Shown here piece after piece: positions 22,959-58,600 of a stretch of 64,000 bases of DNA (its first letter is position 1; each line of letters opens with the position of its first letter). Under the pieces are notes generated by a model, which saw only the letters and a program-made list of their open reading frames with translations, did no database searches and was not told where the DNA came from. Origin of the DNA: an uncultured cyanobacterium (GTDB lineage: Bacteria > Cyanobacteriota > Cyanobacteriia > Cyanobacteriales > Cyanobacteriaceae); contig CAVQBA010000007.1 of the NCBI GenBank assembly GCA_963710605.1, forward strand, positions 320,001 through 384,000, written 5' to 3'. The translations under genes were made by a program, and so were the position numbers.

Positions 22959-23141
22959 ATAATTTCAATTTAAAATTAAAAATAGTAACTATAACAGCGT
23001 ACAGTTAATAATAGATCCTCGATCGTTTAACTAACTTTTAAACTCAAAAATTGTCAACTATTAACTGTTAACTTTTAACTCTTAACTAAAATAAGATCTG
23101 AATTATAATAAACAAGAAAGTCAGAACAAGAAATAAAAAAA

Positions 23142-23372
23142 ATGGAAGCGTTTTCTCGTATTGCCCCAGAATGGACTCACTCTGCTGTACATGCTATGAG
23201 TTTTCATTGTCCTAACTGTGAAGCGTCTCCTCATGAAGCTAAAAAGGTATGGCTGAATCGATATGCACCTGTAACCAGTGAAGATAGAGTTCGTAAATGG
23301 CAAGAATTTTATTTGTGTGAGTGCGATCGAGCTTGGTGGGGATGGAGTAACGATCGAGTAACGATAGAGTAA
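23142..23372 (+). CDS. Small conserved cyanobacterial protein with CxxC...CxC (possible zinc ribbon)
   Basis: CPNC and CEC motifs; WQEFY..WWGWS pattern. Confidence 0.7.
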   Translation: MEAFSRIAPEWTHSAVHAMSFHCPNCEASPHEAKKVWLNRYAPVTSEDRVRKWQEFYLCECDRAWWGWSNDRVTIE

Positions 23373-23440
23373 GGAGTAAGGAGTAGGGAGTAAGGAGTAA
23401 GGAGTAAGGAGTAAGGAGTAAGGAGTAAGGAGTAAGGAGT
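23368..23440. repeat. Heptamer tandem repeat (GAGTAAG)n
   Basis: About 10 copies visible. Confidence 0.9.
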
Positions 23441-23541
23441 GTCTTGGTGGACATTCCCGTCTTGGTCAGCCTTCCCTTGCGACTTGCCGTCGTCGCGGGT
23501 TCTGACCGCTTGCGTCTTACGCCGACGCGGGCTTCCACCGC
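23441..23541. mobile_element. Two nested copies of a ~50-nt GC-rich structured repeat inserted in a heptamer array
   Basis: Inner copy 23459-23509 lies inside outer copy 23441-23458 + 23510-23541; same architecture with compensatory stem changes. Confidence 0.7.
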
Positions 23542-23700
23542 AAGGAGTAATGAGTAATGGAAAAGTTGATGCTGGATAGTTGATAGTTTACATACATAAA
23601 AAGTATTAGTTCATTATTTTTCTTTAATCTAATTCCTAATTCCTAATCTCGGCTTTTTTCTATTAAGAAAGATTAAGTTCATAATTATCATCTAGTCAAT

Positions 23701-23719
23701 TATGAGAGAAATATGAAAA
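23701..23719 (+). promoter_or_regulatory. ManR-like direct-repeat operator
   Basis: TATGAGAG-AAA-TATGAAAA matches the recalled (T/A)ATGA(G/A)A(A/G)-N3 direct repeat, just before mntC. Confidence 0.7.
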
Positions 23720-23728
23720 GAAAGTGAT

Positions 23729-24753
23729 ATGATAAAAAAATCAAGTTCACTTATTTTTCTATGGCGAAATCTGATTTTGAGGCGAGGCATAATCTTATTC
23801 TTTGGTATAAGCCTAGGGATGATGTTATAGGCTGTAACCAAAGACAAGTAACTTCACCAACAACTACATCAAATACAGAGGCAGAAGATAGTACAGACAA
23901 TTCTTCAGTACGGACAGAAGGTAAATTGAAAGTACTTACTACCTTTAGCGTTTTAGCAGATATTGCTCAAAATGTAGCAGGAGACAAACTTAATGTCGAA
24001 TCTATTACCCGTATTGGTGCAGAAATACATGGTTATGAACCGACACCTAGTGATATAGTCAAAGCTCAAGATGCGGATTTGATTTTATACAACGGCATGA
24101 ATTTAGAACGTTGGTTCGAGCAATTTTTAGGTAATCTAGAGGATGTTCCTTCTGTATTACTAACCGCAGGAATTGAGCCGATTGCGATCGCGCAAGGACC
24201 GTACACAGACAAACCGAATCCTCATGCTTGGATGTCTCCTCGTAATGCACTGGTGTATGTAGAAAATATTCGCCAAGCTTTTATCGAACTTGATCCAGAT
24301 AATGCTGAGACTTATAACGCTAATGCCCAAGCTTACAGCGAAAAGTTAAAAGCAATTGATACCCAGTTACAGGCAGATTTAGAACGAGTACCACAAACTC
24401 AACGTTATTTAGTTAGTTGTGAAGGTGCATTTTCTTATCTTGCTCGTGATTATAACCTCAAAGAGATTTATCTATGGCCGATTAATGCTGAACAGCAATT
24501 TACTCCTAAGCAAATACAAAGAGTAATTGAAAAAGTGAAAGCAAATAATGTGCCAACTATTTTTTGTGAAAGTACGGTTAATGATGAAGGACAAAAACAG
24601 GTTGCTAAAACCACAGGGGCAAGGTTTGGAGGAAATCTTTATGTAGATTCTCTTTCAACTGAAGAAGGAGCGGTGCCTACTTTTATCGATTTACTCGAAT
24701 ACGATGCGCGAACTATCACTAATGGTTTGCTAGCCGGGAGTAAAACTCCGTAG
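23729..24753 (+). CDS. mntC: Mn ABC transporter substrate-binding lipoprotein; apparent 1-nt deletion near 23827 separates the signal peptide
   Basis: EIHGYEPTP, NPHAWMSP, CEGAFSY, LYVDSL. The upstream frame MIKKSS...GIILFFGISLGMML joins IGCN (lipobox) if one A is restored. Confidence 0.88.
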
Positions 24754-55652: not shown

Positions 55653-58600
55653 TCAAATTTCCTCTAGCCACGTTTTTAAAGCTGACTCCAAATTTTCTTG
55701 TTCGGGTAAAAATCCTCTCAATGGAGGTTCGATTGGCTCTTGGGTAATAAAAGCAATAGCAACAACACAACCTTGTTGTAAAAATTGACAAATCTTTTCG
55801 ATCGTATCAGTTAAGACACAATTATCAATAATAATGCTTTTAATGGCAGAAGGTTGACGTGTTCTATTCTGATTTAAAAATTGACGTTTAAGTTCAGGTA
55901 ACGAATTAATTTCAGGAAGATCGAGATCTGAAAATGTACTCTCAAATAAGAGGTTAGAAAATTCTTGTCTTATTTCTTGTTCTTGGGTCAAATATGTCAG
56001 ACTAGAAGCGTCAATATAAATTAGTTCTGGATGCTCTTGTAAAAGTACAAAATCTGAATTTTTTCTATTTATAGAAATTATATTTTGAGATGAAGTTACT
56101 TGTTGAAAAAAGACTGGATATAAAATTTCGTGTGACATTACCCATAGTGCTTCCACAACAGACGATTGCACCCACTCAGATTGATCTTGAAGTAAGGGAA
56201 TCAGCTCTTGAATTGCTTTGTCACTTCCAATTTTCGCTAATGCTACCACAACAGACGATTGCACCCACTCAGATTGATCTTGAAGTAAGGGAATCAGCTC
56301 TTGAATTGCTTTGTCACTTCCAATTTCCCCTAATGCTGCCACAACAGACGATTGCACCCACTCAGATTGATCTTGAAGTAAGGGAATCAGCTCTTGAATT
56401 GCTTTGTCACTTCCAATTTCCCCTAATGCTGCCACAACAGACCGTCGCACTCGATCAGATTGATCTTGAAGTAAGGGAATCAGCTCTTCAATTACTTCTT
56501 CACTTCCAATTTCCCTTAATGCTGCCACAACAGACCGTCGCACCCACTCAGATTGATCTTGAAGTAAAGGAATCAGCTCTTCAATTACTTCTTCACTTCC
56601 AATTTCCCTTAATGCTGCCACAACAGACGGTCGCACCCATGTAGATTTATCTTGAAGTAAGGGAATCAGCTCTTTGATTGCTTTGTCACTTCCAATTTCC
56701 CTTAATGCTACCACAACAGACGATCGCACATCTTCAGATTGATCTTGAAGTAAGGGAATCAGCTCTTGAATTACTTCTTCACTTCCAATTTTCCCTAATG
56801 CTACCTGAACAGACCGTCGCACTCGATCAGATTCATCTTGAAGTAAGGGAATAAGCTCTGGAATTAATTCTTCACTTCCAATCTTCCCTAATGCTTTCAC
56901 AACAGACTCTCGCACATCTTCAGGTTGATCTTGAAGTAAGGGAATCAGCTCTGGAATTACTTCTTCACTTCCAATTTCCCCTAATGCTACCACAACAAAG
57001 TATCGCACCCACTCAGATTGATCTTGAAGTAAGGGAATCAGCTCTTGAATTACTTCTTCACTTCCAATTTTCCCTAATGCTTTCACAACAGACTCTCGCA
57101 CATCTTCAGGTTGATCTTGAAGTAAGGGAATCAGCTCTGGAATTACTTCTTCACTTCCAATTTCCCCTAATACTTCCACAACAGACCGTCGCACTCGATT
57201 AGATTCATCTTGAAGTAAGGGAATCAGCTCTGGAATTACTTCTTCACTTCCAATTTCCCCTAATGCTATCTGAACAGACAATCGCACCCACTTAGATTGA
57301 TCTTGAAGTAAGGGAATCAGCTCTGGAATTACTTCTTCACTTCCAATTTTCCCTAATGCTTCCACAACAAACGATCGCACCCGCTCATATTCATCTTGAA
57401 GTAAGGGAATCAGCTCTGGAATTACTTCTTCACTTCCAATTTTCCCTAATGCTTTCACAACAGACGATCGCACCGAATCAGATTGATCTTGAAGTAAGGG
57501 AATCAGCTCTTTGATTGCTTTGTCACTTCCAATTTCCCCTAATGCTTCCACAAGAGACGATCGCACATCTTCAGATTGATCTTGAAGTAATCCTTCCACA
57601 AGAGACGATCGCACCCATGTAGATTTATCTTTAAGTAAGGACACAAAAATAGGAACGGCTTCCTCGGTTCTTATCTTAATCAGAGATTGCTTTATAGGTT
57701 CTTTAATTCGATCGTCTTGAATATAGATAACAATTTTATCAGTAATTGCCTTTTTTAAATCTGCCGAACAATTTTCATATTCTGTAATACCTTCTAAGGC
57801 TAATAAATATAACTTAATTTGATAAAAATCAATATCGCAATCAATTCCCGATTCAAACCTTATCATTGATTGATATAAAGCCAGTTTATGTTCTTCTAAG
57901 TCTTTGTTATCCAACCCTAACCAAAATAAATAAACTTCTTTCCACTGGCTATCAAATAGACGATAACTTCCTGTTGCCACCGAAGATGAGGTGACGGGTA
58001 GTTGGTGATTCAAGAAAAATTTATGACTATCGATGGCTTTTGCGGCAAAAAACTCATGTAAAGTAGTGTGAGGAAAAGCATAAACTTTTTCGTCATTAGT
58101 AGGATATCTATCCACCAAATTTAACCAACCAAACTGACAAGCCAAAAGAAATTGTTCTTCAGAAATATGATCGAGAATAAAACTTTGACTCAAACGAAAA
58201 CGACTCGGATTATCCATTGCTTTTAAAGCTATTTTCGCCAATGCGGAAAACAAACTTCTTTGCTTTGTTTGAGTTAATGATGATTGATTTTGATTCCATC
58301 GCTCACTATACTTATTTACGAAACTTTGAAATAATTGAGCTTTGGCGGTAGGAAGCGTTTGGCGAACACTCCACATTTCACATAACAAACATAGATATAG
58401 CGGATTGCGAACTACCTCATTAATATTTTGATATTTTGTATCTTTTAATTTCTCGATTAATGAAGTTGCTGTAGTTAATTCGGAAAAATTACCAAGTTGA
58501 TTATTTTGTTTCCATTCATCAAAAAATTTGAGAATATATTCTTTTATCTGTTCATTATCAAATTGTTTGGCACGAAAAGTAGAGTAATTAGTGAGATTAT

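Follow-up and report, generated by a model that had tools for sequence, protein, structure and literature searches.

The element described here lies in the spacer that separates two genes of the + strand in a cyanobacterial genome. The gene upstream, taken from the ORF list, is a small conserved ORF of 76 aa (23142..23372, +) whose 3' end overlaps the start of a heptamer array and which has homologous coding sequence in three relatives (G001, G011 and G019). The one downstream, from the same list, is an ORF of 330 aa (23761..24753, +) with a homolog on another contig of the congener G001. Positions are those of the window, which is the whole stretch of 64,000 nucleotides that was analysed (C7:320001-384000); the source genome (G000) comprises 3,930,250 bases in 7 contigs with 33% G+C. 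It contains 708 copies of GCGATCGC against 9.4 expected, an excess of the type which PMC5861425 gives as the HIP1 hallmark of cyanobacteria. The window also holds 86 tandem-repeat rows, many of which are period-7 arrays in spacers, and at 56137-57590 a 93-nt tandem repeat of 15.6 copies with 88% matches.

Direct reading of 23101-23900 places 101 G+C-rich bases at 23441-23541, where they split a GAGTAAG array at GGAGT^AAGGAGT. The left part of this array, the host of the insertion, runs from 23367 to 23440 (period 7, 10.6 copies, 97% matches), and the array is resumed in register with AAGGAGTAATGAGTAATG at 23542..23559, of which 23545-23559 are scored as period 7. The block is composed of two units, one inside the other. 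The 5' part of the outer unit (23441..23458, +) consists of a GTCTT tail, the stem-1 arm GGTGGA, the internal loop CATT and the stem-2 arm CCC, and its 3' part (23510..23541, +) of TT, stem 3 (GCGTC/GACGC) with the loop TTACGCC, GGG, CT, the stem-1 arm TCCACC and the tail GC. A whole inner unit of 51 nt (23459..23509, +) separates the two parts, splitting CCC from TTGCG; it was recognised by direct reading, by its fold and by a covariance model (R1), which scores it at 65.8 bits (G000:C7:343459-343509, E 1.2e-13). The layout of this inner unit is GTCTT-GGTCAG-CCTT-CCC-TT-GCGAC-TTGCCGTC-GTCGC-GGG-TT-CTGACC-GC, in which TTGCCGTC is the loop. Once the insert is subtracted, the outer unit measures 50 nt and has a layout identical to that of solitary copies elsewhere. 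The two units differ in both main stems by compensatory changes (GGTGGA/TCCACC versus GGTCAG/CTGACC and GCGTC/GACGC versus GCGAC/GTCGC). An earlier note on this DNA had described the block in these terms, and its coordinates, the lengths of 50 and 51 nt, the stems, their compensatory differences and the in-register break of the array all proved exact on re-reading. In the window there are two matches to the 5' pattern GTCTTGGT..CCCTTGCG, where 100 shuffles lead one to expect 0.00.

The unit is a hairpin in three tiers. Its 5' tail, (N)TCTT, is followed by a stem of 6 bp, the internal loop C-N-T-T / N-T, the CCC/GGG helix, the TT bulge and a stem of 5 bp closed by a loop of 7-8 nt; the 3' tail is GC. 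As DNA, either strand of the inner unit takes up the proposed fold, with energies of -10.0 and -10.4 kcal/mol and z values of -2.4 and -2.5. The fold of the composite as an RNA of 121 nt (z -3.25, with 1 of 200 shuffles as good) likewise has the inner unit folded as proposed, and in this minimum-energy fold the outer arms pair with local alternatives and not with each other. That the composite is more than chance follows from another observation, since in all 13 nests of the source genome a perfect outer unit is recovered when the inner one is removed; the insertion of the element into a copy of itself, as the earlier note had read it, is therefore upheld.

A structural parser, which cuts out complete units repeatedly and parses the remainder again, found 46 cleanly parsed units at 33 loci of the source genome. 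The model R1, for which 68 distinct units from many genomes were aligned, gave 46 contiguous matches in the same genome, and a 23-base pattern with at most one mismatch gave 41, against 0 for the reversed control. The units are mostly intergenic (31 of 33 loci) and show no bias in orientation towards the flanking genes, with 12 loci antisense, 8 sense, 7 divergent and 6 convergent. On contig C4 a run of 9 of 9 units lies on one strand, but the cumulative GC skew, flat in each of the 7 contigs, offers no replication strand to set this against; along one contig of the relative G002 the unit strands alternate. A search of Rfam 15 found no match on the element beyond a chance match of 11.7 bits (ALIL, E 2.7) that overlaps its last 31 bases only. 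In 24 public sequencing runs just 0.05 of the sampled words were present.

The pairing is strongly supported by covariation. In the alignment of the 68 distinct units 98.1% of cells are paired, compared with 85.7% after shuffling (none of 500 shuffles reached the observed value) and with 33-49% when the partner was slid by 1-3 columns. Double changes occur in 8 of the 14 pairs, so that compensatory stems, noted at first between two units only, are a trait of the family. Column 9/47, for example, is GC in 41 units and CG in 27, column 10/46 is AU in 30, CG in 29 and GC in 8, and column 24/36 is UA in 22, AU in 16, CG in 16 and GC in 3, with 11 unpaired. Because the unit parser had demanded a paired outer stem, pairing was retested from matches to the 5' pattern alone. 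An exactly complementary 3' arm was found downstream in 33 of 34 cases in the source genome and in 87 of 113 in other genomes (among the matches listed), while control arms taken from other stem classes were found in 13 of 136 and, among the matches listed in other genomes, 33 of 904 cases. Invariance, found in 21 of the 52 alignment columns, is concentrated in the internal loop, the TT bulge, the CCC/GGG helix and the unpaired tails, and sequence and fold are therefore both constrained. The suggestion that selection acts on structure rather than on sequence thus holds in its first half, by the covariation, and fails in its second, by the invariant columns.

Host sites in the source genome are of several kinds. 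Sixteen of the 33 loci lie in heptamer arrays (GGAGTAA, AATTCTC, AATTGTC, AATTGAC, TATCAAC and CTCTTAA), two of these arrays being imperfect, and in such insertions the register is always kept, with one phase per array type (AGT^AAG, GTC^AAT, CTC^AAT and so on). For another 8 loci the host is a hairpin, GGGTGCAAACC^TTGCACCCCTAC, entered in its loop, and for 6 it is a palindrome, CCCCTCT^CCT...AGGAGAGGGG; of the rest, 2 are in unique sequence and 1 is a partly parsed nest. The other strand of the first hairpin begins with GTAGGGGTGCAA, which makes it a GTAG-tagged REP of the kind that PMC3733652 reports from cyanobacteria. This REP-like family, GGGTGCAAACCTTGCACCCCTAC, whose reverse complement starts with GTAGGGGTGCAA, is found for example at C1:39130 and C4:183081. 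The full palindrome reads CCTCACCCCCAA-CCCCTCTCCT-nnn-AGGAGAGGGG (for example at C1:337007 and C4:40021), and entry takes place inside its 5' arm.

Both repeats also occur empty within the same genome, the hairpin in 35 empty versus 11 filled copies and the palindrome in about 10 empty (20 matches over both strands) versus 5 filled copies. Comparison of empty and filled hosts gives junctions without duplicated bases, in agreement with the lack of a target-site duplication first noticed at the window locus; in other genomes there is one extra T, ambiguous between a base of the unit and a 1-nt duplication. The empty alleles that the earlier note had proposed to look for were obtained in the form of host repeats within the genome, but not as an orthologous site, as a query with the 3-kb region returned no clean empty site in G001 and four other relatives. 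The coding parts of this region are 69-76% identical in relatives (76% in the congener G001), and the spacer in G001 and G019 contains neither array nor element and is too diverged to define an empty site. The left flanks vary in the source genome (GGAGT, TTGTC, TTCTC, TCAAC, AAACC, TTCCC, CCTCT) and show a C/T^T/A tendency only. Elsewhere, in 86 distinct flanks among the matches listed, T occupies position -1 in 77, C position -2 in 54 and T position +1 in 69, a preference with which the CCC^TT bulge and the TCT^TT loop of the unit itself agree.

In each of the 13 nests of the source genome the inner unit has its start at offset 18 within the outer. Elsewhere, among the matches listed, the start is at offset 19 in 18 of 21 nests and at offset 26, in the terminal loop, in the other 3; units of other genomes have one more 5' T, or one T duplicated. 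The outer and inner stems occur in 13 different combinations. One locus holds a triple nest, and more triple and decayed nests are visible in the source genome. In G019, which belongs to another genus of the same family, GGTGGA units lie inside GGTCGG units, the reverse of the arrangement in the window. Self-nesting is accordingly a property of the family and not an accident of the window locus.

The sub-family of the inner unit, GGTCAG-CCTT with the core GCGAC..GTCGC, has 9 copies in the source genome, all of them inside other units. The outer units that carry it are more diverse in internal loop, core and context than the inner units themselves, which fits repeated entry by a young sub-family. 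Some composites have probably also spread as one piece, since two are identical, the window copy and the one at C4:1252497, each in a GGAGTAA array.

Decayed nests were seen at C1:111441(-), C4:50809, C4:1143697, C6:367903 and C6:823351 of the source genome and at three loci of G019 (L153-L155). In them 5' halves are stacked up with a smaller number of 3' halves, and the hybrid 3' halves resemble deletions between neighbouring units. Deletion derivatives that combine two 5' halves with a single hybrid 3' half occur in both genomes, and these hybrid forms indicate that recombination too shapes the family. A recurrent variant of the junction reads ..TTCGGT^GTCTTGG.. in place of ..TTCCC^GTCTTGG... 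A second element of about 47 nt (GAAAAGTGTGGTCTTGGGGG..CCCCCATGAACAACTTTT.CAAGA), also found elsewhere, enters the 50-nt unit after TTGCG (G000:C7:410085, C4:1172043, C5:248675 and others); several of its copies have themselves been entered, in the loop, by a third insert of about 55 nt, which brings three families into one nest.

An exact-pattern scan with one genome per species matched at least 117 stretches, and among the matches listed all but one are of cyanobacterial source. The exception (L020), from a Flavobacteriales bin, is a 5' half without a complementary 3' arm and is for this reason a chance match or a mis-binned fragment. The carriers among the matches listed include Okeania, Dapis, Xenococcus, Xenococcaceae, Waterburya, Pleurocapsa, Hyella, Crocosphaera, Cyanothece sp. 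BG0011, Prochloraceae, Baaleninema, one Rivularia bin and others. The layout of the unit is common to the carrier genera, with nests among their loci too. Cultured strains are found among the carriers, namely Xenococcus sp. PCC 7305, Baaleninema simplex PCC 7105, Cyanothece sp. BG0011, Hyella patelloides LEGE 07179 and Okeania hirsuta. At the scanned loci at least 116 units were parsed (among the matches listed), 21 of which were revealed only by cutting out an inner unit. The pattern matches in 7 of 41 relatives and, besides the source genome, in 4 of 19 genomes of the window's own family. With R1 under stricter filters, matches were obtained in 6 of 151 genomes sampled across the phylum, all of the window's order; under the same filters one family of 17 genomes in this order (f7) and one of 50 genomes gave none. 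The search of plasmids returned a single partial match of 35 nt, in Stanieria. The covariance search which the earlier note had proposed, the parser and the pattern scan together confirm a dispersed family, present at 33 loci of the source genome and in many other cyanobacterial genera, and its spread is wide but patchy within one cyanobacterial order.

Copies also occur inside genes of other cyanobacteria. Among the matches listed, 51-nt units, equal to 17 codons, lie in frame in tnpB-like genes at at least 5 positions and always antisense to the gene (loci L012, L022, L050, L061, L065, L119, L120 and L125). At L022 and L050 the unit occupies the identical tnpB position, although the two TnpB proteins are only 33% identical. 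Among the matches listed, 17 of the 20 units within long ORFs are antisense; this bias may reflect selection, as a sense copy followed by a T-rich 3' flank would resemble a terminator.

Taken together with the absence of a match in Rfam, the unbiased orientation in the source genome and the copies within genes favour selfish spread over a cellular function at specific sites. We take the unit for a miniature insertion element, non-autonomous and recognised through both its fold and its conserved unpaired bases. The block in the window is probably a pair of such elements, each of about 50 nt and non-coding, moved in trans, most plausibly by the cutting and joining of single-stranded DNA. The outer unit would first have entered the GGAGTAA array between GGAGT and AAGGAGT, without target duplication; a second unit, of another sub-family, would then have entered the outer one between the CCC helix arm and the TT bulge, again without duplication. 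The finished pair may instead have arrived as one piece.

As the units encode nothing, we infer that a protein supplied in trans must move them, and this protein would recognise the folded single strand along with the conserved unpaired bases. Junctions are precise and free of duplicated bases, the unpaired bases at the hairpin foot are conserved, and the hosts chosen are loops, bulges and slippage-prone arrays; all this points to a reaction on folded single strands, of which the HUH-type (Y1) nucleases are a known example. The likeliest chemistry would be a cutting and joining of single-stranded DNA similar to that of these nucleases, at pyrimidine-rich ..C(T)^T.. sites that become accessible in bulges, in the loops of hairpins and in repeat arrays that have slipped. 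TnpA-REP of E. coli is reported to cut at CT beside a hairpin, and CT precedes most units in other genomes (among the matches listed). Several points speak against this explanation, among them the lack of a fixed target word, the form of the unit, a single hairpin without separate left and right ends, the want of strand asymmetry in the mismatches, the deletion derivatives, and the failure to find a mobilising gene or a clean orthologous empty site.

The search for the mobiliser was less rewarding. Y1_Tnp is present in 35 of 41 relatives, in 7 of 7 with units and in 28 of 34 without, and RVT_1 in 19 of 21 genomes scored, whatever their number of units; both are near-universal with or without the element and therefore uninformative as candidates. 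The link to HUH/RAYT transposases or to reverse transcriptases that the earlier note had in mind could not be demonstrated. The source genome has 10 Y1_Tnp matches and 17 RVT_1 matches, the latter more than any of the 20 relatives scored, many of them in ORFs of about 600 aa that resemble those of group II introns. It also encodes two paralogous RAYT-like ORFs of 180 aa (G000:C2:30776-31318 and C4:589590-590132). No units lie beside either of these genes and no gene is bracketed by units; between close unit pairs we found only housekeeping genes. Clustering of 1098 ORFs from 117 loci (among the matches listed) gave tnpB-like ORFs as the top cluster, with 20 loci, but the units there are in-frame passengers and this candidate was rejected.

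Another route of spread would be through RNA: a transcript of the unit would enter DNA as such or be reverse-transcribed into it. A conserved fold that covaries suits RNA as well as single-stranded DNA, the absence of target duplication is compatible with it, and the source genome comes first among the 21 genomes scored for RVT_1 (17 matches) and leads in number of units too. This association is not kept in the relatives, however, where G002 has 12 units with 2 RVT_1 matches and G020 has 12 matches with one partial unit. The mismatches of 111 distinct units also give no sign of strand asymmetry, as G:T pairs (13) on the strand of the unit do not outnumber A:C (21), and neither a 5'-truncated series nor A-tails were found. 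Considering moreover that half of the copies are antisense to the neighbouring genes, we regard spread through RNA as unlikely.

The hybrid deletion forms show that units recombine, and it could be argued that true insertions have been few, the copies having multiplied by ectopic recombination or gene conversion between repeats that share flanks, or by carriage in larger mobile repeats. In favour of this are the single fixed phase in each array type, the identical composites in two GGAGTAA arrays and the situation at L140-L149 of G019, where a nest and a TTTTGGA array lie inside two larger repeats with conserved flanks of at least 40 nt, the nest being a passenger of these repeats. Even so, fresh entries would be needed to account for the range of hosts: heptamer arrays of at least 6 types, both hairpin hosts, two loci in unique sequence, several positions in tnpB genes and the unit's own sequence. 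The 13 combinations of outer and inner stems and the 86 distinct flank pairs elsewhere (among the matches listed) tell against it too, and the homology arms available for spread of the inner unit measure merely 18 and 32 nt. As a general account this is in our opinion quite improbable; part of the copy number may nevertheless come from carriage in larger repeats or from array recombination and not from fresh insertion.

It is very doubtful that the unit is an immobile functional motif selected at each site, such as a terminator, an RNA-stability element or a protein-binding site, for although its unpaired bases are strongly conserved (21 invariant columns) and the T-rich 3' flank in other genomes makes a sense copy terminator-like, its orientation is unrelated to that of the flanking genes, copies lie within ORFs, within one another and within other repeats, the element is absent from most relatives (including 15 of the 19 genomes of its own family) and from the congener's orthologous spacer, and it has no match in Rfam.

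Our preferred reading, that of a miniature insertion element moved in trans on a folded single strand, brings the family close to several known classes of repeats. Elhai et al. in 2008 reportedly described eight families of small dispersed repeats (SDRs) of 21-27 nt in Nostoc punctiforme; some of them are said to share a hairpin with compensatory changes and to be hosted often by heptamer arrays or mini-transposons, and two to be nested in themselves, with movement through RNA as the favoured explanation. The elements presented here are likewise very small, non-coding dispersed repeats with a compensatory hairpin and an insertion inferred to be precise, they use heptamer arrays as hosts (16 of 33 loci, 2 imperfect) and occur as copies within copies (13 nests, and 21 elsewhere among the matches listed). 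The resemblance to the cyanobacterial SDRs that had been remarked on is therefore real, and extends to nesting, heptamer hosts and compensatory hairpin alike; location within larger mini-elements, often reported for SDRs, is a further likeness. The units differ in their size of 50-51 nt, compared with the reported 21-27 nt, and in their three helices. SDRs of Nostoc are cited in PMC5861425 and PMC4390886, the first of which has them confined to the Nostocaceae, whereas the carriers found here are mostly not Nostocaceae. We provisionally file the family as new beside SDR1-8, from the reported size and spread of those repeats. In the literature searched neither a description of a 50-nt family of this kind nor its 16-mers in print were found, and repeat catalogues may exist in supplements.

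REP and REPIN elements, associated with RAYT (Y1 HUH) transposases (PMC3116915, PMC3733652), are similar in being short intergenic hairpins with conserved unpaired foot bases, no duplication and a presumed handling as single-stranded DNA. The unit has no GTAG or CGTC tag (its tails are (N)TCTT and GC) and does not form inverted doublets, and it is separate from the genome's own GTAG-tagged REP, into whose loop it inserts. With non-autonomous derivatives of IS200/IS605, the palindrome-associated elements, it shares small size, absence of target duplication and hairpin ends. A fixed tetra- or pentanucleotide target is typical of IS200/IS605, whereas the unit has no fixed target word of 4-5 nt and is a single hairpin and not two ends; the units in tnpB genes are in-frame passengers and not the ends of a tnpB element. 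From MITEs, likewise small and non-autonomous, of which PMC3733652 names Nezha, it is distinguished by the lack of terminal inverted repeats and of target-site duplication. The unit of about 50 nt is several times smaller than both MITEs and IS200/IS605 derivatives. The host arrays are of the type of the STRR heptamer arrays of cyanobacteria, reportedly described by Mazel et al. in 1990, but here the arrays are the target and not the element.

The element is an unexceptional member of a rare class that is poorly understood, to which the family adds a widespread and well-defined member with a mapped self-target and empty sites within the genome. For annotation it should be taken into account that units can insert 17 in-frame codons into genes such as tnpB, and that the layered repeats which they build confuse assembly and gene calling. 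How non-coding tiny bacterial repeats spread has been an open question since the small dispersed repeats of Nostoc were described. The present family offers several handles for its study, namely a fixed architecture, strong covariation, the self-target CCC^TT, empty and filled hosts in one genome and cultured carriers.

We are tempted to go further and propose, tentatively and as an idea that we would not yet favour, that order-wide elements of about 50 nt, defined by fold only, home into loops and bulges, their own included, by means of an enzyme newly linked to transposition, possibly a host-encoded nuclease or ligase specific for hairpins and not any known transposase. If this were true, these units would be among the smallest mobile DNAs, and they would provide a tractable entry to how such small repeats move.
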